Shown here: positions 1,986 through 61,648 of the stretch, piece after piece | Numbering within the stretch: position 1 is the stretch's first letter | How the letters are laid out: each line of letters opens with the position of its first letter | Source: Patescibacteria group bacterium | Lineage (GTDB): Bacteria; Patescibacteriota; Minisyncoccia; Phycocordibacterales; JBHPGB01 | Assembly (NCBI GenBank): GCA_042571085.1 | Contig: JBHPGB010000003.1 | Span: 6,261 to 70,260 of the forward strand | Length of the DNA: 64,000 nucleotides | Direction of reading: 5' to 3' | Notes under the pieces: generated by a model | Told to the model about the DNA's origin: nothing | Database searches by the model: none | Seen by the model: the letters and a program-made list of their open reading frames with translations, nothing else | Translations under genes and position numbers: made by a program

Positions 1986-3449
1986 ATGGCATCTATAGAA
2001 GAATTACGCTCTGAGCGTGTAAAAAAATTAGAAAAAATAAAAGAAGCCGGAATGAATCCATACCCGGCTCGTTCATCGCGCACAAATACAATCGATGATG
2101 TTTTGTCGCAATTTAAAGACTTAGAAAAAAGTGGCGAAGAAATTACAATTGCCGGACGTGTTATGGTAGCGCGTGGTCAGGGAGCGATTCGCTTTATTGA
2201 TTTACGTGACGGTACTGGCAAACTGCAAGCTGTTTTGAAAGCAGATGTATTGGATGAAAAATTATTTGAATTATTCGGTGCTGTAATTGATGCCGGGGAC
2301 TTTATTGAGGTGTCAGGAACACTTTTTGTGACTCAAAAAGGACAAGAGAGTATTGAAGTACGTGATTGGAAGATGCTTTCAAAATCCTTATTGCCGCTTC
2401 CAGACAAATGGCACGGGCTTGTTGATGAAGATTCACGACTTAGAAAAAGATATTTAGACATTCTTTTAAATAATGAGTTACAAGATGTGCTGAAAAAACG
2501 TGCGAAGTTTTGGGATGCCACACGTTCGTTTATGAATGAAAAAGGATTTCTTGAAGTTGAAACACCAACACTTGAAACGACAACAGGTGGAGCAGAAGCA
2601 CGCCCTTTCATAACACACCATAATGATATGGACATGGATGTGTTTTTACGTATTTCAGTCGGGGAATTATGGCAAAAGCGCTTGATGGCAGCTGGAATGG
2701 AAAAAACCTTTGAGATTGGAAGAGTATATCGAAACGAAGGCACAAGCCCAAATCACGTACAAGAATTTACAAACATGGAATTTTACTGGGCCTATGCTGA
2801 TTACAAAGATGGAATGAAATTGGCTCAAGAATTATATCAACACATAGCACAAGAAGTATTCGGGACAACAAAGTTTAAAAGTGGTGAACATGAATTCGAT
2901 CTGTCTGGAGAGTGGGGAACAGTTGATTATTATGGCGAGGTTGAGAGACAAACTGGTGTTGATTTAAAATCTGCTTCCGACGATGATATCAAGAAAAAGT
3001 TAGATGAGCTAAAAGTGAAATATGAGGGTGATAATCGGGAGCGTCTTATGGATACACTTTGGAAATATTGCAGAAAGAATATTTCTGGTCCAGTATTTTT
3101 GATAAATCATCCAAAATTAGTTTCACCTTTAGCAAAAGAAGTTGAAGACAATGGAGAATTTACTCAGCGCTTCCAGCCAATTATTGCTGGCGTTGAAATC
3201 GGTAATGGTTATTCTGAGCTTAATGATCCGCTTGAACAGCGCGCTCGGTTTGAAACTCAACAAGAGCTTCTAAAAGGCGGAGACGAAGAAGCAATGATGC
3301 CAGACTGGGAATTCGTAGAAATGCTTGAGCACGGAATGCCACCCACATGTGGATTTGGATTCGGAGAACGTCTATTTGCTGTTTTGCTTGATAAGCCAGT
3401 ACGAGAGACTCAAACGTTTCCATTAGTTAGAGTAAAGGAAGACGCTTAA
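1986..3449 (+). CDS. lysS: Lysyl-tRNA synthetase (class II)
   Basis: 487 aa; N-terminal anticodon-binding OB fold plus class II core; typical LysS N-terminus MASIEELRSERVKKLEKIKEAGMNPYP. Confidence 0.9.
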   Translation: MASIEELRSERVKKLEKIKEAGMNPYPARSSRTNTIDDVLSQFKDLEKSGEEITIAGRVMVARGQGAIRFIDLRDGTGKLQAVLKADVLDEKLFELFGAVIDAGDFIEVSGTLFVTQKGQESIEVRDWKMLSKSLLPLPDKWHGLVDEDSRLRKRYLDILLNNELQDVLKKRAKFWDATRSFMNEKGFLEVETPTLETTTGGAEARPFITHHNDMDMDVFLRISVGELWQKRLMAAGMEKTFEIGRVYRNEGTSPNHVQEFTNMEFYWAYADYKDGMKLAQELYQHIAQEVFGTTKFKSGEHEFDLSGEWGTVDYYGEVERQTGVDLKSASDDDIKKKLDELKVKYEGDNRERLMDTLWKYCRKNISGPVFLINHPKLVSPLAKEVEDNGEFTQRFQPIIAGVEIGNGYSELNDPLEQRARFETQQELLKGGDEEAMMPDWEFVEMLEHGMPPTCGFGFGERLFAVLLDKPVRETQTFPLVRVKEDA

Positions 3450-5335: not shown

Positions 5336-5665
5336 ATGAAAGCAAAATCAAAAGCATTACAATTAAATATTCACTACACAAAAGTAATTTTTGCTGTCTT
5401 GGGTGCGGCATTGTTTTTGCTACTATTTTTGTATTCATATTTTATAAACGCATCTGTATTAAATATTGTTGAAAGAAAAGAAATTGAGAAAAAATTGGTT
5501 GAAACAAATTCCTATGTTTCAGCTCTTGAATCTGAGTATTTTAAGCAAATAGGTGGTGTAAATCTTGACTTAGCTTTCTCTCTTGGATTTGAAGAGGTAT
5601 CAAATTCTAACTTCGCATATCGCAAATCTTCAGATGCTAGAACTGTTACTTTGAATAGAAATTAA
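5336..5665 (+). CDS. ftsL: Cell division protein FtsL-like (small bitopic membrane protein)
   Basis: 109 aa; single TM then coiled coil; lies between rsmH and ftsI. Confidence 0.5.
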   Translation: MKAKSKALQLNIHYTKVIFAVLGAALFLLLFLYSYFINASVLNIVERKEIEKKLVETNSYVSALESEYFKQIGGVNLDLAFSLGFEEVSNSNFAYRKSSDARTVTLNRN

Positions 5666-5711
5666 TTTTTAATTTCTTAGAGAAAAGTAGTACATACTGT
5701 ATAATTACACC

Positions 5712-10886: not shown

Positions 10887-12326
10887 CTATAGTTTGTTAA
10901 TTTTGAAGCTATCATCTAAATCCTTCACCTCGTATCCCATTTCAGCTATTTTGTCTCGTAATTCATCAGATTTTTTGAAGTCTTTCTCTTCTCGAGCTTT
11001 TTGGCGCTCTTGGGCCAGTGCTCCAACCTCCTTTGGAATATCTTCTTTGGTAGTTTTTTGAGTGGCGAGATTCAATCCAAGCACATGATCAAAATCTATG
11101 AGTGTGGCATATTTATCTGCCGGAGAAATTTCAGGGTTTTTTATAAGTTCCCACATAAGTGCAATTGCTTTTGGTGTATCTAGGTCATCATTTATCGCCT
11201 CGGTGAATTTTTCTTTGTAATCCTCATTTATTTTTCCAGACGTGTCGTCAATACTTGAAACAAATGTGTAAAGTTTTCCAAGTGCATTTTGTGCGGCCAT
11301 TAGAGAATCAAATGTGAAATTTATTTTTGTACGGTAATGAGCAGTTAATACTAAGTAGCGGTAGGCTAGGGGATCAAATTCTTTATCAGTAAGAGTTTTA
11401 AGTGTAATAAAATTGCCAGCAGATTTCGCCATTTTTTCTCCACTCACATCTACAAAATCACTGTGCATCCAATAATTTACGAAAGGTTTCCCTGTTGCTG
11501 TTTCACTTTGTGCAATTTCATTTGTGTGGTGTATAGGAATCAAATCAATACCACCTGTGTGTACATCAAAATTTTCTCCAAGATACTTCATACTCATTGC
11601 AGAACATTCTAAATGCCAACCAGGGAATCCTTTACCCCAAGGCGAATCCCACCCCATATCTTTGTTAAATTTCCCAGAAAACTTCCAGAGAGCAAAGTCT
11701 ATAGGATTTTTCTTTTCTGGATTTGTTTCCACACGAGCACCAGCTTTCAAATTATCTATATCAAGCTTAGCGAGTTCACCGTAATTGAGAGCTTGTGAAG
11801 TGTCAAAATACACACCGTCTGAAATAGTGTATGTTGCACCTTTTTCTTCCATGCGTTTTATAAGCTCAATTTGTTCTTTGATGTGCTCTGTTGCCTTTGG
11901 AAAAGTTTGAGGACGCTTTATATTAACAGAGTCTAAGTCTTTAAAAAATTCGGCTGCATAAAAATCGGCAACTTCTTTCATTGCTTCTAGTGTGATTGGT
12001 TTACCTTCGCGCTCCAGTGCCTTAGTCATTTTATCAATCCCTTCGTCGGCGTCGCTTGCCAAATGCCCAACGTCAGTAAGGTTCATTACTTGGTTCACTT
12101 CATACCCATTGTACTCAAACATTCTACGTAAAATATCAGCAAAAATATATGCACGAAAATTACCGATATGCGCGTAATCATAAACTGTTGGCCCACAATG
12201 ATACATACCAACCTTATTTGGTTGGAGTGATTTGAACCCTTCTTTTTCTCTGGTTAGAGTGTTGAATAATTGTATTTGCATAATTAACATAGTACCCGCC
12301 AAACTTTTGTTTCGCAAGCTCCACAA
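10887..12326 (-). CDS. cysS: Cysteinyl-tRNA synthetase (true start probably near 12281, at MQIQLFNTLT)
   Basis: HIGN (YAHIGNFRAY) and KMSKS (KMAKSAGN) class I motifs. Confidence 0.9.
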   Translation of the reverse strand: MWSLRNKSLAGTMLIMQIQLFNTLTREKEGFKSLQPNKVGMYHCGPTVYDYAHIGNFRAYIFADILRRMFEYNGYEVNQVMNLTDVGHLASDADEGIDKMTKALEREGKPITLEAMKEVADFYAAEFFKDLDSVNIKRPQTFPKATEHIKEQIELIKRMEEKGATYTISDGVYFDTSQALNYGELAKLDIDNLKAGARVETNPEKKNPIDFALWKFSGKFNKDMGWDSPWGKGFPGWHLECSAMSMKYLGENFDVHTGGIDLIPIHHTNEIAQSETATGKPFVNYWMHSDFVDVSGEKMAKSAGNFITLKTLTDKEFDPLAYRYLVLTAHYRTKINFTFDSLMAAQNALGKLYTFVSSIDDTSGKINEDYKEKFTEAINDDLDTPKAIALMWELIKNPEISPADKYATLIDFDHVLGLNLATQKTTKEDIPKEVGALAQERQKAREEKDFKKSDELRDKIAEMGYEVKDLDDSFKINKL

Positions 12327-12339
12327 AACTTAGGCGGGT
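12294..12339. terminator. Hairpin ACCCGCCAAAC-[variable core]-AACTTAGGCGGGT between corA and cysS
   Basis: Same arms as 1902..1947. Confidence 0.55.
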
Positions 12340-24483: not shown

Positions 24484-25611
24484 CTACTTCTCGTGTTTTA
24501 GTGCGAGGTTAAGGATTTCGCGGGCTATTTTTTCTCCGGCATCTGGGCGGGCAAATTCTTTTGCAGCTTGCTTCATTTCTTCTCTTGTATTTTCGTCGTC
24601 CATAAGTCTATCAATTGATGACATGAGCACATGTGGACTAAGATTTTTTTCTTCCACAACTAAACACGCTCCGCTTCTGGCATAAGTAAATGCGTTGCTG
24701 CGTTGATCGTGACTTATCTCCTCTGGGATTGGAATAATAATACTTGGTAAGCCCCAAGTAGCGATTTCAAATATAGAGGATCCGGCACGCGATATTACAA
24801 CATCAGAAATACCAGCAGACATCTTCATTGCAAGGTCGTTTAGATATTCAAAAGGTTTGTATCTATTTTTGTTTGGTGAGTCTTGCAGTATCACTGAAGC
24901 TGTACCAGAAATTTCTTTAAAGTGTTCTTTTCCTGTTTGGTGTATAACTTGATATTTTTTTACTAGCTCAGGCAATACGCCAAGTATTGCCTCATTTATT
25001 CTTTGTGCACCTTGTGATCCGCCGAGTATTAAGATAACAGGAGTTTGTTTTTCTAATTTCAAAAACTCATGAGCACCACTTGTTTGTGGGATTGAAATAT
25101 TTTTACGTATTGGATTTCCTGTGAGCGCGACACGATCTTCTGGGAAATATTGTGCTGCATCCGGATATGAAACCGCAATTCGTTTTGCAAACTTCCCTGC
25201 CCACTTATTTACTTTTCCGGGCTTTGAATCAGATTCATGTATGATTACTGGAATTCCTAAAAAGCGAGCAGCGAAAAGTGTCGGAAAGCTACCGTAACCC
25301 CCTTTGCCGAATACTACGTCAGGGAAGATTCTATACAATTGCCACGTTGCTTTAATGATTCCTGTTGCTGTTTTAAAAATATCAAAGAAGTTTTTGATTG
25401 AGAAATGTTTACGAACTTTACCAGCTGGAGCTTGTTTGAATTCTATACCGTGCTCAAAAAGCTCTTTTTTATCATATGGATTAGGTGCAACAAAATACAT
25501 TTGTGTTTCCAACAAATGTTCTTTTGATGCCAGTTCATTTATTTCTTCAGCTATTGCGATAATTGGATAAAAGTGTCCACCTGTACCGCCACCTGTAAAT
25601 AGAATTTTCAT
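24484..25611 (-). CDS. murG: UDP-GlcNAc:undecaprenyl-PP-MurNAc-pentapeptide GlcNAc transferase MurG
   Basis: 375 aa; GGTGGH N-terminal motif; GT-B fold; follows ftsW. Confidence 0.9.
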   Translation of the reverse strand: MKILFTGGGTGGHFYPIIAIAEEINELASKEHLLETQMYFVAPNPYDKKELFEHGIEFKQAPAGKVRKHFSIKNFFDIFKTATGIIKATWQLYRIFPDVVFGKGGYGSFPTLFAARFLGIPVIIHESDSKPGKVNKWAGKFAKRIAVSYPDAAQYFPEDRVALTGNPIRKNISIPQTSGAHEFLKLEKQTPVILILGGSQGAQRINEAILGVLPELVKKYQVIHQTGKEHFKEISGTASVILQDSPNKNRYKPFEYLNDLAMKMSAGISDVVISRAGSSIFEIATWGLPSIIIPIPEEISHDQRSNAFTYARSGACLVVEEKNLSPHVLMSSIDRLMDDENTREEMKQAAKEFARPDAGEKIAREILNLALKHEK

Positions 25612-25726
25612 CCCGTTAGAGATAGGAAAGATAATTTCCGTATCTGATTATGTGTTGTTAAAAAATTGACCAAAATCTCGCCATGTTCCATTTTGCCACA
25701 AAAGACAGCTTGGATCTCTAACGGGA
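25611..25726 (-). mobile_element. TIR element copy A (116 bp): 13-bp terminal inverted repeats TCCCGTTAGAGAT; TGAA/TTCA 4-bp direct repeats at 25607..25610 and 25727..25730; abuts the murG start codon
   Basis: Both ends read directly from the sequence. The terminal A of the element plus the duplicated TGAA rebuilds the murG ATG. Confidence 0.55.
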
Positions 25727-25734
25727 TTCATAAA

Positions 25735-28938: not shown

Positions 28939-29490
28939 TTAAGCCACTTCCTCTTCTTCCTCTTTTTGTTCTTCAAAACTCTCTATTTCCACTTTCACAT
29001 TTTCATAATCTGGCAGCTCTGTAATATCTGTTATACCAAGATGAGCGAAAAGTTCAAATGTTGGTTTGTATAGAAAGCTTCTTTGGTCTTCAGGGTTGCT
29101 CGTGCGTTCAACAAGTCCGCGCACCATCAAGTTGCGTAGAATGAAGCCTGAGTTTACACCACGAATGTAGTCTACCCTACTTTTTGCAATTGGTCCGAGA
29201 TATAAAACTATAGCAAGTGTTTCCAGACCTGCTTTACCCAAGTCTTTGTTCAGCTCTTCTTTTACGAGCGCTTCAATAATGTCTCCAAATTCAGGAGCAG
29301 TACCAATCATAACCACATCGTCTTTTTTAATTAATCTTATTCCCCTGTCGCTTAGGCTTTCTTTCAATTCAGAAACAGCATTAAGAGCATCTTCTTCTTG
29401 CACGCTCAACATAGCAGCCAAATTTTTTATTTTTGTTGGCCCGTTTTGGTAAAAAAGTATTGCTTCTATTTTTTTTGATAATTCATTCAT
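28939..29490 (-). CDS. scpB: Segregation and condensation protein B
   Basis: 183 aa; two winged-helix repeats; adjacent to scpA. Confidence 0.85.
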   Translation of the reverse strand: MNELSKKIEAILFYQNGPTKIKNLAAMLSVQEEDALNAVSELKESLSDRGIRLIKKDDVVMIGTAPEFGDIIEALVKEELNKDLGKAGLETLAIVLYLGPIAKSRVDYIRGVNSGFILRNLMVRGLVERTSNPEDQRSFLYKPTFELFAHLGITDITELPDYENVKVEIESFEEQKEEEEEVA

Positions 29491-29659
29491 CCCGTTAGAG
29501 ATAGGAAATAAAATTTCCGTATCTGATTATGTATTGTTAAACATTGATCAAAATCTCATTATATTCCATTTTGCCATAAAAGACAGTTTGGACCTGCCCG
29601 CCACTGCCTAATTCGTCCCAAATGTCAGTCAGGCGATGGCAGGCGGGTATCTAACGGGA
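29490..29659 (-). mobile_element. TIR element copy B (170 bp) carrying a nested 57-nt GC-clamped hairpin module; TTCA direct repeats; abuts the scpB start codon
   Basis: Same ends as copy A; insertion CCTGCCCGCCACTGCC...GGCAGGCGGGTA at about 29596..29652. Confidence 0.55.
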
Positions 29660-29672
29660 TTCATGTTGTTTT

Positions 29673-30449
29673 TTATTCGTATTTTGGTGTGCCCACCTCT
29701 TTAGATTCTATATCTATGTCTCCAAATTTCATATCTTGCTTCACATCAATAACATTCTGCTTCACAAGCTCAAGCATTGCAAGGAAACTCACGACCACAT
29801 CTACACGTTCTTTTTTTCCCATTCCGGAAAATTCAGTAAAGCTCATTTTAAAACTATTTTTAATTCGCTCGGCGAGATTGTCCATTCTCTCTTCCAGACT
29901 AATAACTTTCTGCACAACAGCTTGAGGAATAATATCTTTTTTTGGCAACTTCTTTAAAACATCTTTTATTGATGCGAATATGTTTTCTGTATTTGTGTAT
30001 TTATCAGGTGAAAACACCATCTCTGTATTTTTGCGAATTGTTTTTTCAAACATCATATTCTTACCGAAACTTTTTTCAATACCCTCCCCGAGTTCGCGCA
30101 TGCGTTTATATATTTTCAATCTTGTTTCCAAATCCTCCACACTCTCCTTTTCTTCTTCAGTGAGCGATAAAGTCGGTAAAAGAGATTTTGATTTTATAAG
30201 AACAAGGGTTGATGCTACGAGCACAAAATCAGCTGTATTTTTCACAGAAAAATCCTCAAGCCTTTTCGTGTATTCAATATACTCATCTGCAACAGCGGCC
30301 AAAGATATGTCGTTTATAAAAAATTTCCTCTTCTCTATCAAAGAAAGAAGTAGGTCTAAAGGCCCCTCAAACACGTCTGTTTTTATTTCAAATGCACTGC
30401 TCATTTGCATACAATATACCTTAAATTGGCAATAAAATAAACGGCTCAA
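29673..30449 (-). CDS. scpA: Segregation and condensation protein A (kleisin); true start probably an internal M (MQMSSAFEI)
   Basis: 258 aa; ScpA N- and C-terminal winged-helix regions. Confidence 0.8.
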   Translation of the reverse strand: MSRLFYCQFKVYCMQMSSAFEIKTDVFEGPLDLLLSLIEKRKFFINDISLAAVADEYIEYTKRLEDFSVKNTADFVLVASTLVLIKSKSLLPTLSLTEEEKESVEDLETRLKIYKRMRELGEGIEKSFGKNMMFEKTIRKNTEMVFSPDKYTNTENIFASIKDVLKKLPKKDIIPQAVVQKVISLEERMDNLAERIKNSFKMSFTEFSGMGKKERVDVVVSFLAMLELVKQNVIDVKQDMKFGDIDIESKEVGTPKYE

Positions 30450-30463
30450 CGTAAGTTGAGCCG
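30442..30463. repeat. GGCTCAAC-family hairpin: CGGCTCAAC gtaa GTTGAGCCG
   Basis: 9-bp perfect stem; upstream of scpA, downstream of the small ORF. Confidence 0.5.
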
Positions 30464-30485
30464 GTCAATGTGTGTTCACTTGGAT

Positions 30486-30695
30486 TCAAATTTCTCTTGA
30501 TCCGCAAAATAGACAAAAATGCTGTGCGTCATGTGTAATCACACTTGTTTCGTGCTGACAGCCTTTCTGTAGATACTCCAGCATTTTATGTATTTGAGGA
30601 GGGATTTCTGGCTTTTTGTGCTTTTCATCTACAAGCATCACTAGTAGTATTCTTCCGCGTAATTCAACTAATTCGTGTGGCTCCAATCGGCACAT
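30486..30695 (-). CDS. Hypothetical small Cys-containing protein (69 aa) with canonical SD
   Basis: CAGGAGG 6 nt upstream of the ATG; C-terminal CQHE...CLFCG. Confidence 0.45.
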   Translation of the reverse strand: MCRLEPHELVELRGRILLVMLVDEKHKKPEIPPQIHKMLEYLQKGCQHETSVITHDAQHFCLFCGSREI

Positions 30696-30780
30696 AGATA
30701 CCTCCTGTGCATGTACAAAATCTATATATTAAAACTACCAGTAAATGGTAAAAGTTACAAATAAAAATTGATGCTGTCAA

Positions 30781-31455
30781 TTAGATTTTCTCAGCGTTTT
30801 TTACGTCAAAGTCCCCTACTTTTGTGCGACGCAGCTCTTTGATTGTAGCCGGTACGCCGAGCCGACGGCCGATTTCTTCAGCAATAGAACGGATGTATGT
30901 TCCAGATGAAACATCTAATCTTATTTGCAAAACCACCTTATTGTCCACTTGTTTGGTGTCCAGTAGGTCAATACTTTTTATTTCCATTTTTTTAATTGGT
31001 GCTTCCACATCTTCTCCACGGCGAGCTTTTTTATACAGTGCCTCCCCTCCTCTTTTGATTGCTGAATAAATTGGTACAGGTAATTCGAGCACACCAACCA
31101 AACCATTTAGAGTTTCACCAAGCTTGGTAGAGATTGAATTTATATCAACCGACTCCTCTTCAAGAATTTCACCTTCCATATCTCCCATATTAGTTTTTAT
31201 GCCAAGCAACACCTCTGCCTCGTATTCTTTATCTAATCCAATTAAATCTTTTAGTTGTTTTGTCCCTTTTTCTATACCAATGATTAAAAGCCCGCTTGCG
31301 AGCGGATCTAAAGTGCCTGCGTGGCCCATCTTGCGTACGTTAAGTTTTTTACGAAGCCTGCGGATTACATCAAAAGAAGTAATACCTTTAGGCTTGTCTA
31401 TTAGAATTAAGTTTTCTGAATCCATATTTCTAGTGTGCCATGTCGTGTTGTTCAT
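30781..31455 (-). CDS. truB: tRNA pseudouridine(55) synthase TruB
   Basis: 224 aa; catalytic-Asp motif GHAGTLDPLASGLL. Confidence 0.9.
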   Translation of the reverse strand: MNNTTWHTRNMDSENLILIDKPKGITSFDVIRRLRKKLNVRKMGHAGTLDPLASGLLIIGIEKGTKQLKDLIGLDKEYEAEVLLGIKTNMGDMEGEILEEESVDINSISTKLGETLNGLVGVLELPVPIYSAIKRGGEALYKKARRGEDVEAPIKKMEIKSIDLLDTKQVDNKVVLQIRLDVSSGTYIRSIAEEIGRRLGVPATIKELRRTKVGDFDVKNAEKI

Positions 31456-32608
31456 TTATCAGTGTAACAAATAATGTTGCCACTGCAGCAAATATGAAAA
31501 TAAATTTTATGCTAAAGAAAAATGAAATTATAAATGCAATACCAATCATTAATATCCTCCCAATATTTAGTGACATTTCTCGTAATACAGTATATTCGTC
31601 CACATAATGTCCATTATCTGCAGCTTGGTCATATTGTGTTGTATCAACAGATGTGCGATGTATTACTCTACCTACATTGTGGTATGTGTCTGCGATAAAA
31701 ACCTGGAATGCTGTTTCTATGAAAAGTTTAACAATCCATCCTGTGGTGTTAAATATTGATCCAATAACTACCATACGTTTTTGATTCCAGGTATCAAGTA
31801 AATTTCCAATGAAAGTTCGTATTATTATAATTGCAAAAATTGTTAATGAGGATACGATACCTACTGTGAGATATTTTTCATCAAATAGCATGAATATAAA
31901 AATAGGCCATATTATTGCTGATACAATACTTTGAAACCCATCAGCAGTGAATGCTATAAACATACCCCTGTTTTCTTTGTGAAAAAGTTTTTTGAAAGTT
32001 TCCAAGTACCCCCAACTATAATGTTCTCGTGTACTTTCTATAAAAAAAGCTGGAATTATACTGAATAAAAACAAAAAGGCTGAAACAAGGAAAGCTCCAC
32101 TGAAAGTGAAATATGCAATCAGTGCGCCACCGACAAATGGCATTATTGTACCTATTATTTGAGCAATATTACGAAGAAGAGAGATTTGTCGACCACGAAT
32201 GTCTTCGTCGGTAAATTTTGCAAAGTCTACATGATATGGAAGCCAGTATAATAATTTATATATAATAATTGCTAATGTGAATATGACAAGAATAAGATAA
32301 GGGTTATAATCCCAAAAATATAGAGAAAAAATTGATATTAGAGCGAAAGGTACCGCAATTATCATCATTTTTTTTAGGCTAAAGCTGTTTAATATTCTTG
32401 ATGCAATTGGATATAAAAAAAGGACCAAACCAAAATTTATTGCATAGATGATGAGAACTGCTGTGAAAGAATTATCAAATTTTGTAAAAAAGAATATTGG
32501 TAGGAACAATCCAATTACTCCAAACGCAGCCTGTAGTAAAACGCGCCCAGTGTATAGCCAGGCAAGATTTTTTGATATTTTTAAATTTTTGTAATCAAAC
32601 AATTTCAT
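31430..32608 (-). CDS. Polytopic membrane transporter (MFS-like), hypothetical
   Basis: 392 aa; about 12 TM helices. Confidence 0.45.
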   Translation of the reverse strand: MKLFDYKNLKISKNLAWLYTGRVLLQAAFGVIGLFLPIFFFTKFDNSFTAVLIIYAINFGLVLFLYPIASRILNSFSLKKMMIIAVPFALISIFSLYFWDYNPYLILVIFTLAIIIYKLLYWLPYHVDFAKFTDEDIRGRQISLLRNIAQIIGTIMPFVGGALIAYFTFSGAFLVSAFLFLFSIIPAFFIESTREHYSWGYLETFKKLFHKENRGMFIAFTADGFQSIVSAIIWPIFIFMLFDEKYLTVGIVSSLTIFAIIIIRTFIGNLLDTWNQKRMVVIGSIFNTTGWIVKLFIETAFQVFIADTYHNVGRVIHRTSVDTTQYDQAADNGHYVDEYTVLREMSLNIGRILMIGIAFIISFFFSIKFIFIFAAVATLFVTLINEQHDMAH

Positions 32609-32778
32609 CCCGTTAGAGATAGGAAATGTAATTTCCGTATCTTATTAATGGTAAATTGATTATGTATAAATATTTTATCAGTTTCCCGCTTGCCACAAAA
32701 GACAGTTTGGACCTGCCCGCCACTGCCTAATTCGTCCCAAATGTCAGTCAGGCGATGGCAGGCGGGTATCTAACGGGA
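32608..32778 (-). mobile_element. TIR element copy C (171 bp) with the same nested hairpin module as copy B; TTCA direct repeats; abuts the start codon of the transporter gene
   Basis: Nested module 32716..32772 is 100% identical to that in copy B. Confidence 0.55.
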
Positions 32779-32785
32779 TTCATTT

Positions 32786-33058
32786 TTATGCGCAAATAGT
32801 ATTTTTATATCCTGGAAAATAATTTTGTATTTCTTTTAAATTAAACTCACTTAAGATTTGCTCCGCCGCTTCCCTCTCAAGCAGAAACTCAAATGATTTT
32901 TCTATTAATTCTTCCGGTGTTATTTTACCATTTGATAGTTTAGCATAATAATCTTTATCTAGTACGACGGTATGCTTTGTTTTGTCGGAAATCTTTACTT
33001 CAAAAGTGAAATGTTCTTCATTCTCATCAATTTTTTGTATTTGCAGATTGTGAGTCAT
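32786..33058 (-). CDS. Hypothetical protein (90 aa)
   Basis: ORF only. Confidence 0.4.
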   Translation of the reverse strand: MTHNLQIQKIDENEEHFTFEVKISDKTKHTVVLDKDYYAKLSNGKITPEELIEKSFEFLLEREAAEQILSEFNLKEIQNYFPGYKNTICA

Positions 33059-33063
33059 GGCTT

Positions 33064-34059
33064 TTAAATGATACTAAATATCTTTAGTATGAAAAATACA
33101 TACAATACCAAAAACATCATTCCTTCCCAGTGATATATTCGACGTGATATTCCAACTATAATAAACAGGAATGTTGCAAGGGCCATAATCGGTACACCAA
33201 TTGAAAGCGTACTATGGTCTACTGAGAGTGATCCAAATAATCCAGGGAGCCCAACCACAAAGAGGGCGTTGAAGGAGTTTGAACCTAAGATATTACCAAC
33301 CGCCACTTCAGATTTGCCTTGTAAGACAGCACGGCCGGATACAGCCAGCTCTGGTAATGATGTACCAATAGCAATTGCTGAAATTGAAATTAGTCCTGGA
33401 GCGATGTCTAAAAGTGTTGAAAGTTCTATTACAGATTCAATAAGATATTTTGCGCCCAATAATACCGCACAGAGACCGGCCACAAAAAGTATCTGGTCTT
33501 TAAAATGAGCAACTCTGCGTAATACATATATAAGGCCCCAGTATTCCCTCTCTGCAAATTTCTGTAGCTCTTTACTTTTTTCTGCAACAACAGTACTGGC
33601 CTTCTTTTCACCACCCGCAAGAGAATATACAAAATAGATTAGATATGTGATAAACAAGAGAATAGATTCAATTTGTAGCACTTGCCCGTCGTATACAATT
33701 CCCAAAAATAGTACTGTTGAAATTGCAAACAGCGGTAACTCCAAATCAATAAGACTGCGAGTAACTTCCAAGCGCCTTCCCATGATTGCGATAATACCCA
33801 AGATGAGTAGTATGTTTGCAATGTTGGAACCGGTAGCGTTTGCGACAACGACTTCCGGTACTCCTTGAATTATCGCGGCGAATGCGGATACTAATTCTGG
33901 TAGTGATGTACCAATACCAACAATAAGCGCACCAATCACGAATGGCGAGAAACCGAGTCGAATTCCCAGGCGCTCGGCGCCGTGCAAAAACCAGTGAGAA
34001 CCTTTCACTAAAGCAGCGAGAGATACCACGAAAATGAGTATCCATGTAAATATTTCCAT
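33064..34059 (-). CDS. Ca2+/cation antiporter (CaCA family, YrbG-like)
   Basis: 331 aa; two alpha-repeats GTSLPELVSAF and GTSLPELAVSG with GNILGSN. Confidence 0.75.
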   Translation of the reverse strand: MEIFTWILIFVVSLAALVKGSHWFLHGAERLGIRLGFSPFVIGALIVGIGTSLPELVSAFAAIIQGVPEVVVANATGSNIANILLILGIIAIMGRRLEVTRSLIDLELPLFAISTVLFLGIVYDGQVLQIESILLFITYLIYFVYSLAGGEKKASTVVAEKSKELQKFAEREYWGLIYVLRRVAHFKDQILFVAGLCAVLLGAKYLIESVIELSTLLDIAPGLISISAIAIGTSLPELAVSGRAVLQGKSEVAVGNILGSNSFNALFVVGLPGLFGSLSVDHSTLSIGVPIMALATFLFIIVGISRRIYHWEGMMFLVLYVFFILKIFSII

Positions 34060-34741: not shown

Positions 34742-35040
34742 ATATAGACGTGAAAAATGCCAGAGCAAGCTCCGACATTCTTCAGTGTAGTCACCTCCCG
34801 GAGGAGATAACTACCCTTTTATTATATTCAATATTGAAATCTGGTCAATACTTTTTGTAGATAATTGTGGATAACTCCCAGTGCCTATTCTTTGTAATCT
34901 GACTATTCCACCAGACGTGAAAAATGCCAGAGCAAGCTCCGACATTCTTCAGTGTAATTATTTTCCCGGAGGAAAACAATTACTCTCCTAATATATCAAT
35001 TTCTGAGATTCGCGCAAGTCCTATTTTCAATAGAGTATAA
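34742..35040 (+). repeat. Family-2 composite repeat, locus 1 (unit1 plus unit2; each unit begins with the invariant 42 nt AGACGTGAAAAATGCCAGAGCAAGCTCCGACATTCTTCAGTG)
   Basis: About 90% identical to 37322..37652; unit2 is also present alone at 39198..39372. Confidence 0.7.
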
Positions 35041-35046
35041 ATATTG

Positions 35047-36717
35047 TTATTTGTCAAATTCAGGTAAAAATAGCCTTGCGATGCGTAACTCTTCAAATGA
35101 GTATTTTTCTTTGAGTGCTTTGTATACTGGTGAGAGTTTTGTGTCTCCAGATTTTAGAAAAGCCTTGTGCATTTCCATGAGCGCTTTTTGTTTTGGTTTA
35201 AATGTACTTAAATCAAGCTTTGGATCTTTCTCTTTTAGTTTTTCAAGATGCCCAAGGATGGTGTTTTCAACCACCCCTCTCTTCTTTGCTAGTTGTTTTA
35301 AATTTAATCCCTTTTCTATCAGAAGTCTTGTCTTTTCATATGTAGAGATTTTCTCTTCAACCTTGTCTACTTTTTTATTCTTATTTTTCTCGATTTCTTT
35401 TTTATTTATAGTACCCCCACATTTAAGCACAAAATCGTTGTGCATTTTTTCCATATCTCCATCAGAAAAACGACCTATTACCTTACTCCACTTTTCAGAT
35501 TCTTTTAGAAGGTGTTCATTGATTTGAGCCACTCTTGGGTGCACTGCGAAAGCCATTTCGTTTATACCAGAAAGAAGAAGACCTCCGAGCGTGCGTAGAC
35601 GCGAGAGAGCCACGTATCCTTGTCCTGGCACGAAAGATTTAGACAAATCAATTTCTGCTGCATCCATACTCAAGCCCTGGCTTTTGTGTATCGTAATTGC
35701 CCACGCAAGCCGCAGTGGCAATTGCTCCACCATGCCTAGCACTTTCCCATCCTCCTCAACAGACCATTCCGAAGGTGAAACATGAATTAGTTCACCGGAA
35801 AAAGTTTTGACTACTGGCATGCCATCTTCAAAACCTTTTACAACACCAAGCGTGCCGTTAACGTATCCTTCCTCAAAATTGTTTTTTATAAACATCACCA
35901 CCGCGTCCTTCTTTAGTTTGAGTGTTTCGGATGTCAAAATACTCTTTTTGAGTGAGCTTATGATAGTGGCCCGCCCTTTTGAAGACATCTCAAATTTATA
36001 CTCTGTGCCTGGTAGCTTATCCAATTCTTTTTGATTTAGCTCGTCTACATCGGCATTGTGAGTATACAGGCGCGTCGGTGTGATGTTTCCTTTTATGCTC
36101 GTCTGCTCAGAAAGAATATTACGCGTTTTGTCGCTCACAGAGCCGCCTCGTATTTCATTCAGGATACTTTCTAAAGTACTGTCACCTTGGCGAAATTGTT
36201 CCTCTAAATAACAGACACGAACATCCATTTCTCTCCACGCCTCTGATGCGATAGCGAATTCTGGCTCAGTGTATCCGCGTACAATTGGCGGCAATTGAAA
36301 GAAGTCACCCGAAAGCACCACCTGCATCCCTCCAAACGGCTCAGGGTTACGTTTCATCGCTTTACACACCCTGTTTACATTATCTAGCAGCTGCGGTGAA
36401 AGCATGGAAACCTCGTCTATTAAAAGTATCTGTGTTTTTTCAAACCTGGTCCACAGGTGCTTCTTTCCCTCCATTGAATCCAAATCCATTTCAGATATGT
36501 GTTCTTTAATACCAATGCCACTCCATGAGTGAATGGTGGTGCCTCCTATATGAGTCGCCGCGATACCCGTTGAGGCTGTCACACCGATACTGACTCCCCT
36601 ATCTTTTAAATATGAAATATACTCATTTAAAACATGAGTTTTACCACTACCGGCGGCCCCTGTCAGATATACGTTTCTACCAGCCTTTAAAATTTTTAAC
36701 GCTTCGGCTTGTTTCAT
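35047..36717 (-). CDS. SF1B DNA helicase (PIF1/RecD-like) with C-terminal HTH-like tail
   Basis: 556 aa; Walker A GAAGSGKTH, Walker B LLIDEVSM, GDFFQLPPI, ITIHKSQGLS. Confidence 0.7.
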   Translation of the reverse strand: MKQAEALKILKAGRNVYLTGAAGSGKTHVLNEYISYLKDRGVSIGVTASTGIAATHIGGTTIHSWSGIGIKEHISEMDLDSMEGKKHLWTRFEKTQILLIDEVSMLSPQLLDNVNRVCKAMKRNPEPFGGMQVVLSGDFFQLPPIVRGYTEPEFAIASEAWREMDVRVCYLEEQFRQGDSTLESILNEIRGGSVSDKTRNILSEQTSIKGNITPTRLYTHNADVDELNQKELDKLPGTEYKFEMSSKGRATIISSLKKSILTSETLKLKKDAVVMFIKNNFEEGYVNGTLGVVKGFEDGMPVVKTFSGELIHVSPSEWSVEEDGKVLGMVEQLPLRLAWAITIHKSQGLSMDAAEIDLSKSFVPGQGYVALSRLRTLGGLLLSGINEMAFAVHPRVAQINEHLLKESEKWSKVIGRFSDGDMEKMHNDFVLKCGGTINKKEIEKNKNKKVDKVEEKISTYEKTRLLIEKGLNLKQLAKKRGVVENTILGHLEKLKEKDPKLDLSTFKPKQKALMEMHKAFLKSGDTKLSPVYKALKEKYSFEELRIARLFLPEFDK

Positions 36718-37321: not shown

Positions 37322-37652
37322 CTATAGACGTGAAAAATGCCAGAGCAAGCTCCGACATTCTTCAGTGCAGCTACCTCCCGGAGGAGATAACTACCTTTCT
37401 ATTATATTTAATATTGAAATCTGGTCAATACTTTTCTGTGCATAACTGTGGATAACTACCAATGCCTATTCTTTGTACCCTGACTATTTCACCAGACGTG
37501 AAAAATGCCAGAGCAAGCTCCGACATTCTTCAGTGTAATTATTTTCCCGGAGGAAAACAATTACTCTCCTAATATATCAATTTCTGAGATTCACGCAAGT
37601 CCTATTTTCAATAGAATATAAATATAAAAATATGTCAAATTTAGACAAAATG
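37322..37652 (+). repeat. Family-2 composite repeat, locus 2 (unit1 plus unit2) between engB and pyk
   Basis: Direct copy of locus 1. Confidence 0.7.
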
Positions 37653-39092: not shown

Positions 39093-39197
39093 AAACTATT
39101 ATTTGTTTGATTAATATAAAAAAATAAAAAGGCGCCATTGGCGTCATTTTTACTCCCCACTTGTTATTTGACTAACCTGGTGTTCATGTGCAAATCC

Positions 39198-39372
39198 GGG
39201 CGTGAAAAATGCCAGAGCAAGCTCCGACATTCTTCAGTGTAATCATTTAATTATTTCCCGGAGGAAACAGTTAAACAATTACTCCCCTAATATATCAATT
39301 TCTGAGATTTGCGCAAGCCCTATTTTCAATTGAGTATAAATATCAAAATATGTCAAATTGAGGTAAGTTTAG
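39198..39372 (+). repeat. Family-2 repeat, locus 3 (unit2 type only)
   Basis: Invariant 42-nt head plus a conserved tail TATATCAATTTCTGAGATT..GCGCAAG.CCTATTTTCAAT.GAGTATAAATAT. Confidence 0.65.
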
Positions 39373-55182: not shown

Positions 55183-57564
55183 CTAATTTGTGACGATACT
55201 CACTAGTTTGTTCGGTACACATATCACCTTTTTCACATCCTTTTCTTCGGTCCATTTTTTGACAGATTCAAGCTCTTGTGCCTCTTTTTTAACCATTTCC
55301 TCATTGCTATCTGCCTCGATTTCAAAGGTTCCTCGTATTTTTCCGTTCACTTGTACAGCGATCGTGACTGTCTTATCCATAGTCTTACTTTCATCGTATT
55401 CAGGCCATTCTTCAAGATGGATTGATGTGCTGTTTCCTAATTCCGCCCATAATTCTTCTGTTATGTGTGGTGCGAATGGAGCAAGTAATTTTAGAAAGTT
55501 TTTATATTGTGTTTGATTAATTTCTTGACGCTCAGCTTGATTCACAAAAATCATCATTTGTGCAATTGCTGTATTGAATTTCATTTGCTCAAGATCCTCA
55601 CCAACTTTTTTAATAGTTTGATTTAAAACAGTTTCAGCATTTGCCTCATCGGCATGTTCTGATGTCTTATCCTTCAGCTTCCACACACGTTCCAAAAATC
55701 GATATGTCCCAACAATGTTATCTTCTTTCCACATAACGTCTTCTTCAAGCGGGCCTGCAAACATCATATACATACGCACTGCGTCAGCACCAAATTTTTC
55801 TACCATTGTCTCTGGATTCACAACATTACCTTTAGACTTACTCATTTTCTTTCCTTTCTCATCTAGGACCATTCCTTGGTGTCTTAGTTTCAAAAACGGT
55901 TCGTCAAAATTAAGTACCCCGATTTTATTAAGTGCTTTAGTAATAAATCGTGCATACAAAAGATGCATATATGTATGCTCCGCCCCACCGATATATGTAT
56001 CCACAGGTAGCCAGTGTTTGAGCCTCTCTTTTCCACAAAATTCTTTTTCATTGTGCGGATCAGGATATCTCAAATAATACCAAGATGAACATACAAATGT
56101 ATCTAGAGTATCAACCTCTGGTGTCCACCCTTCACCAAATATTTTTTCAGTGCGATCAAAAAGCTCTTTTGATTTTGCCAGTGGTGCTGTACCTGTTGGC
56201 ACAAAATCAACATCCTCTGGCAAAAGCCACGGCAGATTTTCTTCACCGACAAATTTTGCCTCACCTTCTGGAGAATACACAATCGGAATCGGCGCTCCCC
56301 AATATCTTTGACGTGAAATAGACCAGTCACGAAGGCGGTATGTATTTGTTAATTCCCCGCCTACAAATTCGGTGATTTCTTTTTTGGCTTCAACAACACT
56401 CTTTCCGTCAAATTTGCCAGAATTAATTAGTTCCCCGTCACCAACGTACGCTTCTTTTGATATATCCCCGCCAGAAATAACCTCCGTAATTGGTAAATCA
56501 AACTTCTTTGCAAACTCAAAATCACGTTCATCGTGTGCTGGCACGGCCATAATTGCCCCTGTTCCGTATCCAGCAAGCACGTAATCAGCAATAAAAATTG
56601 GTATTTCTTCTTGATTAGCAGGATTTATTGCTTTCACACCTTTTAATTCAACTCCAGTTTTTTCTTTTCCTTCCATTCTTTCTAGTTCAGTCTTTTTCTG
56701 TACACCTTCAAGATATTTTTCAACCTCACCCCAGTTTTCAATAGTTTCTTTGAGCCCTTGTACTAATTCATGTTCAGGCGCAAGCACACAGTAAGTACAG
56801 CCAAACAAAGTATCTGGTCTTGTAGTAAACACTTCCATTTCTTTGTCAGTATTTGAAACTTTGAATTTTAATTTTGCTCCCTCCGATTTTCCTATCCAGT
56901 TTTTTTGATTTACCTTTGTATGTTCTGGCCAGTCCACCTTACCCAGTCCATCGATTAAGTCATCAGCGAAATCAGTGATTTTGAAAAACCATCCGGGCAC
57001 TTCTTTCATTACCACTTCACTTTTACAGCGCTCGCACGCACCATCTTCCACCTGCTCATTAGCAAGAATTGTTTTACAGGATTCACACCAGTTTGTAAGA
57101 CTAGTTTTTTTGTATGCCAGATTGTTTTCAAAGAGTTGAGCAAATATCCACTGTGTCCATTCATAATACTCAGGGTTTGATGTCACTACCTTCTCATCGA
57201 AATCATAATTAAAGCCAAGAGACCTCATTTGTTTAATATAGTTTTCAATATTTTTTACAGTGGTTTCTTTTGGGTGTACTTTTGTTTTTATCGCATAATT
57301 TTCTGCAGGTAAACCAAAAGAGTCAAAACCTTGCGGATGGAGCACATTAAAGCCATTCATTTTTTTATAGCGGTAATAAATATCACTCGCAGCATAACTT
57401 TCTGTGTGGCCCATATGTAGTCCGTCTCCAGATGGATATGGGAACATATCAAGTAAATAATACTTTTCTTTTGAAGTGTCATCTTTATCGATTTTTGCAA
57501 CAGTATCCTTCTCCCATTCCTTCTGCCACCTTTCCTCTATTTTTTTATGATTATATTCTTTCAT
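55183..57564 (-). CDS. leuS: Leucyl-tRNA synthetase
   Basis: 793 aa; HMGH and KMSKS motifs; CP1 editing domain. Confidence 0.9.
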   Translation of the reverse strand: MKEYNHKKIEERWQKEWEKDTVAKIDKDDTSKEKYYLLDMFPYPSGDGLHMGHTESYAASDIYYRYKKMNGFNVLHPQGFDSFGLPAENYAIKTKVHPKETTVKNIENYIKQMRSLGFNYDFDEKVVTSNPEYYEWTQWIFAQLFENNLAYKKTSLTNWCESCKTILANEQVEDGACERCKSEVVMKEVPGWFFKITDFADDLIDGLGKVDWPEHTKVNQKNWIGKSEGAKLKFKVSNTDKEMEVFTTRPDTLFGCTYCVLAPEHELVQGLKETIENWGEVEKYLEGVQKKTELERMEGKEKTGVELKGVKAINPANQEEIPIFIADYVLAGYGTGAIMAVPAHDERDFEFAKKFDLPITEVISGGDISKEAYVGDGELINSGKFDGKSVVEAKKEITEFVGGELTNTYRLRDWSISRQRYWGAPIPIVYSPEGEAKFVGEENLPWLLPEDVDFVPTGTAPLAKSKELFDRTEKIFGEGWTPEVDTLDTFVCSSWYYLRYPDPHNEKEFCGKERLKHWLPVDTYIGGAEHTYMHLLYARFITKALNKIGVLNFDEPFLKLRHQGMVLDEKGKKMSKSKGNVVNPETMVEKFGADAVRMYMMFAGPLEEDVMWKEDNIVGTYRFLERVWKLKDKTSEHADEANAETVLNQTIKKVGEDLEQMKFNTAIAQMMIFVNQAERQEINQTQYKNFLKLLAPFAPHITEELWAELGNSTSIHLEEWPEYDESKTMDKTVTIAVQVNGKIRGTFEIEADSNEEMVKKEAQELESVKKWTEEKDVKKVICVPNKLVSIVTN

Positions 57565-57680
57565 CCCGTTAGAGATAGGAAATAAAATTTCCGTATCTGA
57601 CTAATTATTAATTCTTTATGTATGGATATTTTACTTAATTCCCGTAGTGTCATAAAAAACAGTCTGGATCTTTAACGGGA
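57564..57680 (-). mobile_element. TIR element copy D (117 bp); TIRs TCCCGTTAGAGAT / ATCTTTAACGGGA; TTCA direct repeats; abuts the leuS start codon
   Basis: Read directly from the sequence. Confidence 0.55.
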
Positions 57681-57705
57681 TTCATTTGTTTAAATAATAC
57701 CACGC

Positions 57706-60585: not shown

Positions 60586-60613
60586 TAAGCAACATGTTAT
60601 AATACACTCATGC

Positions 60614-60715
60614 ATCCCGTTAGAAATTTTTGTTTCTTTCTACTCCATCAAGATTTACCATTGGGTTTAACGGGTTCACTTATTAAAAAATTATAAATAT
60701 AAAATTTCTAACGGG
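60614..60715 (+). mobile_element. TIR element copy E (divergent, inverted orientation): 15-bp TIRs TCCCGTTAGAAATTT / AAATTTCTAACGGGA, with an internal TIR-like GGTTTAACGGG; abuts the start codon of the plus-strand BASS-like gene
   Basis: Flanks tgca / tgaa; the terminal A plus TG again rebuilds the ATG. Confidence 0.45.
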
Positions 60716-61648
60716 ATGAAAATTTTAAAAACAATTAGAAAATTTACTGAAAATCATTTCATTATTGTTGGCTTGGCTTTAGTACTCGGTGTTTTATATG
60801 GAAACTATTTAGCTCAATATGCATATTTGAGTACCACATTACTTGCGGCTATTTTCTTTTTGAGTTCACTTAAGATTGATTTGAAGAAAGTGAGACAGTA
60901 TTTAGGAGATAAATTAGTGCTTGCTATAGTAAACATATTCATGCTTTTTATTTTGCCTGTTGCTGTTTATTACGTAACAAATGCAATATATCCGACACTT
61001 GCAATCGCATTTCTTTTGCTTGCAGCAATGCCAGCGGGAATGACAGCACCACTTCTTGCAGAGATTAGTGGAGGTAAACAAAGCTTAGCTCTTGTGCTGA
61101 CAGTTACAACTTCACTCTTAGCACCAATTACTGCACCATTCATAATTAAAACAGTTGCCGGTGCGCAAGTTGATGTAAGTTTTTGGGCAATGTTTACCAC
61201 TTTGGCTATTGTGATTTACATTCCATTTATTTTTGCTCAGATTATCAAACGATTTTGGCAGCGTGCAATTGATAAAGTCGCGATTTCATTCAAACCAATT
61301 TCTGTAATTTTGCTCGGACTTTTAATTATGGTTGTAATTGCAAAACAATCCGACGCAATTATAGATGGATTCAAAAACGGCGATGAATCAATAATATATC
61401 TTGTCGCCCTATTTATTTTCTTTTTGATACTACATGTTCTCGGCCACATAACTTCCTTTTGGAAAAAAAGAGACGAACGCATCACGATCACCGTGTGCCT
61501 CACATATATGAACTTCACACTTGCTATAGAATTGGCCAATAAATTCTTCACAGAGCCTAATATTGTAATACCGGTCGTGTTCTCAGTGATACCGTGGGCG
61601 ATTATGCTTATTCCATATAAACGCATCATGCAAAAAAAGACCAGTTAA
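60716..61648 (+). CDS. BASS-family (bile acid:Na+ symporter-like) membrane transporter
   Basis: 310 aa; about 9-10 TM; size and topology typical of this family. Confidence 0.5.
   Translation: MKILKTIRKFTENHFIIVGLALVLGVLYGNYLAQYAYLSTTLLAAIFFLSSLKIDLKKVRQYLGDKLVLAIVNIFMLFILPVAVYYVTNAIYPTLAIAFLLLAAMPAGMTAPLLAEISGGKQSLALVLTVTTSLLAPITAPFIIKTVAGAQVDVSFWAMFTTLAIVIYIPFIFAQIIKRFWQRAIDKVAISFKPISVILLGLLIMVVIAKQSDAIIDGFKNGDESIIYLVALFIFFLILHVLGHITSFWKKRDERITITVCLTYMNFTLAIELANKFFTEPNIVIPVVFSVIPWAIMLIPYKRIMQKKTS

Follow-up and report, generated by a model that had tools for sequence, protein, structure and literature searches.

Probable nesting of a GC-clamped hairpin element within a miniature GIY-YIG-type mobile element of a Patescibacteria bacterium

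Several described systems resemble, in one respect or another, the arrangement reported here. The GC clusters of yeast mitochondria are GC-rich hairpins that proliferate in AT-rich genomes, and homing, the mode of spread of certain GIY-YIG genes, leaves no target-site duplication (TSD) and needs a homologous empty allele. In the mitochondria of placozoans and sponges, GC-rich hairpin repeats proliferate in AT-rich genomes and enter coding and tRNA regions, through a mechanism that is unknown (PMC7813641). Rickettsia palindromic elements (RPEs), for their part, are palindromic selfish DNA of reduced AT-rich genomes, found between genes as well as in frame within housekeeping genes (PMC10969869). 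The present analysis deals with a stretch of 64,000 nt from a Patescibacteria group bacterium (assembly GCA_042571085.1, contig JBHPGB010000003.1, positions 6,261 to 70,260 of the forward strand), hereafter called the window. It contains several copies, named A to E, of a short element bounded by terminal inverted repeats (TIRs) and hereafter called the host; two of them, B and C, carry an additional 55-nt GC-clamped hairpin, the module. In all likelihood, this composite arose when an independent hairpin element became nested, as a secondary insertion, in a miniature mobile element of GIY-YIG type.

The additional block was noticed in a preliminary description of the window, according to which copies B and C differ from A and D by one GC-rich insertion, identical in both. 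Alignment of the four copies bears this out, the two blocks matching at 55 of 55 positions. The length then proposed, 57 nt in replacement of 2-3 nt of host, is arithmetically equivalent to a clean insertion of 55 nt, which is the simplest account and is adopted here; the limits, placed at about 29596..29652 and 32716..32772, are revised as listed in Table 1. Its position just after the left TIR is likewise revised to the inner part of the TIR that stands at the right end on the + strand, an end that becomes the left one only in the reading direction of the flanking genes. Finally, all four host copies recognised at the outset stand, and a divergent fifth one, E, has to be added to the count. 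On the + strand, the module reads CCTGCCCGCCACTGCCTAATTCGTCCCAAATGTCAGTCAGGCGATGGCAGGCGGG, starting with CCTGCCCGCCACTGCC and ending with GGCAGGCGGG. Once it is removed, 114 nt of host remain in B and 115 nt in C, compared to 115 nt in A and 116 nt in D, and a single adjacent substitution (GGATCTC to GGATATC) is left in B and C. That the block is an imperfect inverted repeat, far richer in GC than its host, agrees with both folding and composition: an imperfect hairpin is predicted, with an energy of -27.3 kcal/mol on the + strand and -28.4 kcal/mol on the - strand (z of about -3.1 versus shuffles), and the GC content is 64% for the module and 81% for its stems, against 31% for the host part of B and 37.8% for the window. 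Besides, both composite copies are present in the independent assembly of a 99.82%-identical strain (GCA_042577165.1, L001), with a single G-to-A nucleotide polymorphism in the stem of the copy C module. The module is therefore not an assembly artefact, and the reality of the extra block in B and C is confirmed.

The polarity of the change emerges from a census of the host family, in which one genome per species was scanned with the invariant 18-mer CCCGTTAGAGATAGGAAA. At least 118 stretches were obtained, and the matches listed, from which 106 complete copies belonging to more than 100 genomes were taken, come from Patescibacteria of many classes, Omnitrophota, Planctomycetota, Nitrospinae, Desulfobacteraceae and others. 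Among these 106 copies, the GC hairpin is found in two, B and C. The other two copies of intermediate size (L049, L118) display a larger loop of the internal hairpin and no GC hairpin, and the right TIR, ATCTCTAACGGG, is intact nearly everywhere in the census, its interruption being restricted to B and C. The module is thus an insertion into a pre-existing host. The initial proposal of an element within an element is supported by this polarity, by the solo relatives of the module and by a pair of filled and empty pth alleles, both described below; the opposite situation, with the block standard in the family and A and D as deletions, was looked for in the 106 copies and not found.

Outside the host, the module belongs to a family defined by a clamp, CCTGCCCGCCAC...GGCAGGCGGG, which begins with CCTGCCCGCC or CCCGCCTGCC and encloses a variable centre. 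A metagenome scan with the clamp alone (CCCGCCTGCC N15-45 GTGGCGGGCAGG) returned at least 120 stretches. One of the relatives, in a metagenome-assembled genome (MAG) of Saccharibacteria (L033, 4451-4504), differs from the module in its loop but not in its stems; placed between two genes of the same strand and outside any host element, it is followed by TCGTTTTTAATTTTT. Close relatives also occur in L159, L162, L194, L201 and L236. Six close relatives share the consensus CCCGCCTGCCATCGCCTGACTG-n-GAGCGATAGGCAGTGGCGGGCAGG, next to which further classes of 39 and 42 nt possess the same clamp, and tandem GGCGGGCAGG-T-GGCGGGCAGG arrays are common on many of the metagenome contigs matched. The search for solo copies suggested in the preliminary description therefore gave a divided answer: none in the window, but relatives standing alone in L033 and L162 and within genes. 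A third intergenic copy, that of L150, is located between tRNA-Gly and tRNA-Pro and within neither, and its identification as a tRNA intron was rejected. Family members are found in either orientation and show no recognisable target duplication, and no match to the module pattern was obtained in the viral contigs scanned. Among simple hairpins, 31 of 48 have a length divisible by three, which is consistent with a frame constraint.

Many copies of the family lie within long ORFs (open reading frames) on low-GC contigs of uncultivated bacteria, where they are in frame, stop-free, in both orientations and in several frames, as inserts of 39, 42 or 54 nt. Inserts of 54 nt were identified in the genes for ArgRS (L201), Pth (L194), HolB (L159) and a RarA-like ATPase (L236), and inserts of 42 nt in those for LeuRS (L146 and L169, where removal restores ...CDKC-G-WQAVPEE) and MnmA (L219), as well as in other ORFs (L207, L175, L217 and L148). 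When aligned to the solved structures of Pth and LeuRS in the PDB, the hairpin segments correspond to insertions. At least three reading frames are used (ARLP..., PARH..., GLPAT...), an example of the predicted peptide being GLPATAYRSNGSVRRWQAG, and the in-gene copies are probably translated; the two module copies of the window, unlike them, are non-coding. In the case of Pth, an 18-residue insert is present in two homologues, both of 214 aa, among the 120 closest listed. Most of those devoid of it measure 196 aa, and in the longer ones aligned the difference is confined to an extended N-terminus. At the DNA level, the filled allele (L194, L248) consists of CCGAAAGG, the 54-nt insert CCTGCCCGCC...GGCAGGCGGG and GGAAG, and the empty one (L246, with 95% protein identity to the filled L194) reads CCGAAAGGGGAG. 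No clear TSD is visible at this pth insertion, at most an ambiguous G-run. The module family is therefore polymorphic for insertion, and the two families are independent of each other. Beside its hairpin insert, the LeuRS of L146 (around 5400-5700) possesses about 20 further extra residues, IHSRHSAELSRSPSSGQAGEAP, relative to the solved LeuRS structures, which may represent another GC-rich in-frame insertion.

Several points weigh against the reading of the module as an independent element inserted secondarily. At the B and C sites, the module is present in both strains, and there is no pair of empty and filled alleles there. No solo module was found in the 64-kb window (blastn-short, regular expression), nor in the approximately 3.8 kb that follow its end in L245, so that the independence of the module rests on other genomes. 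The invariance of the clamp across the wider family is partly due to construction, the clamp being fixed by the search pattern, and translation of the in-gene copies is deduced from frame and stop-freeness, a property for which the ORF-spanning cases had been selected. In pth, the protein of the filled L194 shares 95% identity with that of the empty L246, but only 85% with that of the filled L248. Such a pattern calls for recombinational transfer, precise loss or more than one insertion at the same site, and insertion events cannot simply be counted. In addition, no full-length GIY-YIG copy was detected in the window by tblastn, which leaves the source of the nuclease in this genome unproven. 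Finally, the module stems of the relatives show no compensatory changes or covariation that would argue for an RNA function.

Among the competing explanations, the one that would reverse the polarity, with a 55-nt block ancestral to the host and lost from A and D, is barely conceivable: all that speaks for it is the presence of the block in two of the four local copies, none of the 102 other complete copies holds it, and the same hairpin occurs outside host elements. A less extreme but still improbable view would see in the hairpin a recruited functional RNA, be it a terminator, an attenuator or an mRNA-stabilising stem-loop, instead of selfish DNA. Its stem is strong (-27 to -28 kcal/mol) and intercistronic, the solo copy of L033, placed between two same-strand genes, has a T-rich tail, and the strand favoured by two G-U pairs of the stems is the gene-sense one in each of the seven close relatives. 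However, family members are located inside ORFs in both orientations, and what is conserved in the stems is the sequence itself, compensatory changes being absent, as would be expected of DNA that is recognised or copied rather than of a structured RNA. A terminator scan of 29300-33100 calls neither module, none of which adjoins a U-run, the nearest one lying about 12 nt downstream, and the intrinsic terminator was rejected. In the same line, the module has no Rfam match: at the gathering threshold, only a tRNA was recovered from the window in its entirety, and nothing above chance level came out of a permissive scan of 29400-29750.

The manner in which the module reached both B and C is a separate matter. 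Its identity in the two copies was originally taken to mean that the composite had propagated after the nesting event, a conclusion that the backbones do not support. When these are compared in three segments after removal of the module, the variable core of 49 nt is 84% identical between A and B, 72% between C and D, 67% between B and C, and 59% between A and C; the backbone of B is A-like and the core of C is closest to D. Conversely, the 32 nt beside the junction are 97% identical between B and C, including the shared C-to-A change. Under transposition of host and module as a unit, B and C being daughters of one nested master element, similarity would be expected over the whole length, and the absence of any change in 55 nt next to such divergent cores would be very unlikely (0.67^55, about 3e-10). 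Diverged cores and an identical module indicate that the latter reached at least one copy long after the backbones had diverged. Moreover, one TIR loses its inner part to the module, and recognition would be expected to suffer. The identity of the module and of the adjacent substitution, the similarity on the junction side and the demonstrable mobility of the short host form all go in the direction of unit transposition, which is nevertheless considered unlikely. A somewhat better, though still doubtful, candidate is a double insertion, in which the module would have entered the same TIR position twice, independently, by site-specific targeting between ...TTAGA(G/T)A and TCC. The junctions are indeed identical in two backbone types, and TTAG stands 3-4 nt upstream of the clamp in four of the seven members of the 54/55-nt subfamily (window, L033, L162, L236), a hint at a target or flank preference. 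Yet the sites in pth, leuS, argS and holB have no common motif, TTAG is nearby in only 5 of 100 unique family members and was rejected as too weak a target motif, and the shared adjacent substitution is more simply explained by one copied event. The preferred reading, to which about an even chance is given, is that the second copy acquired the module by ectopic gene conversion; the TIR-proximal, module-bearing end would have been converted between copies 3.1 kb apart, a separate insertion at the same TIR position being the alternative route.

As for its consequences, the module lies about 115 nt upstream of the start codons of scpB and of the gene for a major facilitator superfamily (MFS) transporter. 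It would shorten the pairing of the TIRs from about 14 to about 9 bp, and B and C may thereby be immobilised. Besides, it would add a stable hairpin to the intercistronic RNA of the scpA-scpB spacer and of the spacer upstream of the MFS gene.

Initially regarded as a TIR element of no particular kind, the host is the miniature form of a start-codon-targeting element that encodes a GIY-YIG protein: on sequence grounds, copies A to D are non-coding miniatures, of about 115 nt, of GIY-YIG TIR elements. Their TIRs are (AT)CCCGTTAGAGAT and ATCTCTAACGGG(AT), and no ORF spans their 114-116 nt of host sequence. In the census, 77 of the 106 copies are short (113-132 nt), 25 are long (273-282 nt) and four are intermediate (169-184 nt). 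The long form contains, on the other strand, an ORF of 86-95 aa that is its only gene, M(NPVRD...)MFYTYVLQS...YTGYTNDLRKRFNQHN...YYEACLNEEDARSRE.YLKSGMGKRYLKNRLKRFLSLTG followed by a stop, which matches the Pfam GIY-YIG family PF01541 with E = 1e-17 and whose nearest solved structure is the UPF0213 protein BH0048. The TIRs of the long form are themselves the coding ends of this gene, ATG-AAT-CCC-GTT-AGA-GAT giving MNPVRD and C-TAT-CTC-TAA-CGG-GAT-GA giving ...LSLTG-stop; its last codons are given as FLSLTG-stop, and the TGA stop overlaps the ATG of the gene in front of which the element lies. The GIY-YIG protein presumably mobilises the host element; to our knowledge, no GIY-YIG protein is known as a transposase. 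From the long form, the short one keeps both TIRs and the base of the internal inverted repeat GGAAAC...GTTTCC, which constitutes a subterminal hairpin. Its GGAAA...TTTCC stem, of 5-11 bp, was found in all 68 distinct sequences with many different inner pairs, and its maintenance in spite of these differences indicates that it is selected as a structure.

The host targets gene starts and has moved recently. Exact 5-nt direct repeats flank 63 of the 106 copies, compared to 28.7 expected under shuffled pairing, and the two flanks co-vary from copy to copy (ttcat/ttcat, ctcat/ctcat, tccat/tccat, tcagt/tcagt, tgaat/tgaat), with taaac or tttac instead in a subgroup from Omnitrophota and Planctomycetota. 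Since these repeats vary and co-vary, they represent a duplicated target and not a fixed end of the element. The left flank ends in CAT in 83 of the 106 copies, and an ORF of at least 80 aa begins there in 74 of these 83, the start codon of the gene being retained directly after the element. In the window, copies A to D are all located between minus-strand genes, and the CAT of the left TTCAT starts the downstream gene. Empty counterparts of the four sites are available. In the syntenic L240, whose ScpB is 76% identical, the A site at ftsW-murG bears a single ATGAA (...TAAAGTT ATGAAAATA), where the window shows ATGAA, 115 nt of element and ATGAAAATT, and the genes for the Na/Ca exchanger and the MFS transporter are directly joined at the C site; the B site is empty in L242, with a scpA-scpB spacer of 15 nt. 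The most telling case is copy D, which is precisely absent from L245, a contig of the near-identical strain GCA_042577165.1: L245 reads ...TTTAAACAA ATGAA AGAATAT (...AAACAA end), and the window reads ATGAA, 116 nt from TCCCGTTAAAG to CTCTAACGGG, and ATGAA AGAATAT. On the leuS side, the adjoining 5097 nt are 100% identical between the two strains. The absence of D and the single ATGAA in such a close relative mean that the miniature moved, or was precisely lost, very recently, and that ATGAA is the TSD. The 760 nt upstream of the D site (window 57560-57685, L245 10030-10135) are only 89.6% identical, which suggests that a recombination boundary coincides with this site. Host elements are also found in tandem and nested in each other (L004, L005, L009, L034, L043, L086, L094), the new copy of a tandem beginning right after the TTCAT of the preceding one, which fits an element that regenerates its own target.

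Other identities were considered for the host and set aside. A palindrome-associated transposable element (PATE) of the IS200/IS605 type would account for the subterminal hairpin, but not for TIRs of 12-17 nt and co-varying flanking repeats, since such elements have neither TIR nor TSD and insert 3' of a fixed tetra- or pentanucleotide. The integron attC site was rejected in view of the order GTTAGAG...CTCTAAC, the reverse of R''...R', and of the location at gene starts. A riboswitch or leader RNA was ruled out by the unrelated downstream genes (murG, scpB, MFS, leuS), the TSD and the polymorphism between strains.

Table 1. Host copies and module copies in the window.
Feature	Position	Strand	Length	Span with direct repeats	Remarks
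Host copy A	25612..25726	-	115 nt	25607-25731	Without module; TTCAT repeats 25607-25611 and 25727-25731; left CAT is the murG start codon
Host copy B	29491..29659	-	169 nt	29486-29664	TTCAT repeats 29486-29490 and 29660-29664; left CAT is the scpB start codon
Module in B	29593..29647	-	55 nt		GC-clamped imperfect palindrome; gene-sense (- strand) CCCGCCTGCCATCGCCTGACTG...AGGCAGTGGCGGGCAGG; lacking in A and D
Host copy C	32609..32778	-	170 nt	32604-32783	TTCAT repeats 32604-32608 and 32779-32783; left CAT is the MFS transporter start codon
Module in C	32712..32766	-	55 nt		Identical to the B module; same TIR position as in B
Host copy D	57565..57680	-	116 nt	57560-57685	Without module; TTCAT repeats 57560-57564 and 57681-57685; left CAT is the leuS start codon
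Host copy E	60613..60718	+			Divergent; perfect 17-nt TIR CATCCCGTTAGAAATTT; right-hand ATG starts the + strand gene 60716-61648

Some further features of these elements and of their surroundings were recorded. Copy E, which is also found in L245, contains an internal CCCGTTAAAC fragment, and the + strand gene downstream of it is bile-acid/Na symporter-like. Between the Na/Ca exchanger gene and copy C, an ORF of 90 aa (32786-33058) has no Pfam or NCBIfam match; both this ORF and the element are missing from the syntenic L240, in which the gap between the exchanger and MFS genes measures 5 nt. A database look-up of the window protein 1986-3449 found no record. Two GC-clamped hairpins of another type, ACCCGCCAAACTTTT...AAAACTTAGGCGGGT, at 1902-1947 and 12294-12339, have the same ends but distinct centres. 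Each lies between genes with no T-run beside it, and together they contribute four of the 15 CCCGCC/GGCGGG hexamers of the window, and the two modules another four. An intergenic repeat family (34743-35069, 37323-37650, 39196-39366), with the core AGACGTGAAAAATGCCAGAGCAAGCTCCGACATTCTTCAGTGTA and a second unit of about 94 nt, is present in 3-5 copies near the genes for a PIF1-like helicase, a GTPase and pyruvate kinase, and has no Rfam match. Finally, a longer composite repeat, ...cccgcccgcctcgccttgcggactcgca-CCCGCCTGCC...GGCGGGCAGGTGGCGGGCAGG-tcgctcgcaatgaca..., makes up a large class of the metagenome matches (L123, L126, L130, L132, L141, L165, L183 and others); its flanking sequences are conserved in many contigs from the same samples, and it has the clamp in common with the 55-nt module.

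The start-codon GIY-YIG mini-element and the clamp hairpin family are of more interest than the nesting itself. Patescibacteria have very small genomes that are usually called streamlined, and this locus displays at least two layers of tiny selfish DNA. No published description of either family was found in the literature searched, including by sequence, which is no proof of novelty. It is tentatively proposed, at slightly less than even chances, that two undescribed selfish systems meet here, namely a GIY-YIG element with TIRs, a 5-bp TSD and an ATG target, and a set of in-frame-capable palindromes of 39-55 nt, the second parasitising the first. Within this proposal, the GIY-YIG system would, with the same reserve, span Patescibacteria, Omnitrophota, Planctomycetota and others and comprise active non-coding miniatures. 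Judging from the descriptions found, no element associated with a GIY-YIG nuclease alone had so far been seen to form TIRs and a TSD, and the host family would be the first. Its insertions at start codons leave the gene alive, and a 90-aa protein together with a 115-nt substrate would allow a mechanism of transposition or homing to be tested directly. The hairpins, for their part, lengthen essential proteins (LeuRS, ArgRS and Pth, for example) by 13-18 residues. They bear on annotation, phylogenetic markers and protein evolution, as well as on the quality control of MAGs, where GC-rich islands appear within AT-rich contigs. As copy D and the pth insertion vary between near-identical genomes, the two families can serve as strain-level markers too.

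Set beside known systems, the host has the structure of a miniature inverted-repeat transposable element (MITE): about 115 nt long and without ORF, it has TIRs of 12-14 nt and a 5-bp TSD, the latter shown by an empty site, it reaches several copies per 64 kb, it is present or absent according to the strain, and it has longer coding relatives with the same ends. It departs from MITEs in that these relatives, none of which lies in the window, encode a GIY-YIG nuclease of about 90 aa instead of a DDE, serine or tyrosine transposase, in its targeting of gene start codons, and in the coding nature of the TIRs of the long form. With the GIY-YIG homing genes and UPF0213 proteins (YhbQ/BH0048), the long form shares a GIY-YIG domain that makes up nearly the whole protein and a site-specific, selfish character, whereas its non-coding miniatures, its TIRs with a 5-bp TSD and the large number of unrelated genes that it targets set it apart from homing, and its protein does not have a DNA-binding domain as in I-TevI. 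The module family, on the other hand, recalls the repetitive extragenic palindromic (REP) sequences and REPINs mobilised by RAYT (REP-associated tyrosine) transposases, as its members are short, imperfect, conserved palindromes that are repeated and sometimes form arrays; unlike these, it has no GTAG head and has members inside ORFs, and no RAYT gene turned up in the available sequence. It shares with the mitochondrial GC-rich hairpins the coexistence of single elements and tandem arrays, but resides in bacterial chromosomes, has another clamp and includes one copy nested in a mobile element. Finally, like the RPEs, its members are short palindromes that occur between genes and in frame in unrelated genes while leaving the ORF intact. 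RPEs measure about 100-150 bp and use one conserved peptide frame per family, whereas the hairpins measure 39-55 nt, are read in both orientations and in three or more frames, and carry a GC clamp that contrasts with their AT-rich surroundings; the likeness is one of behaviour, no relationship in sequence to the RPEs being known. As a further part of the two-system proposal, and with a probability put just below one half, these hairpins would be the counterpart, in ultra-small bacteria, of the RPEs and of the mitochondrial GC clusters.

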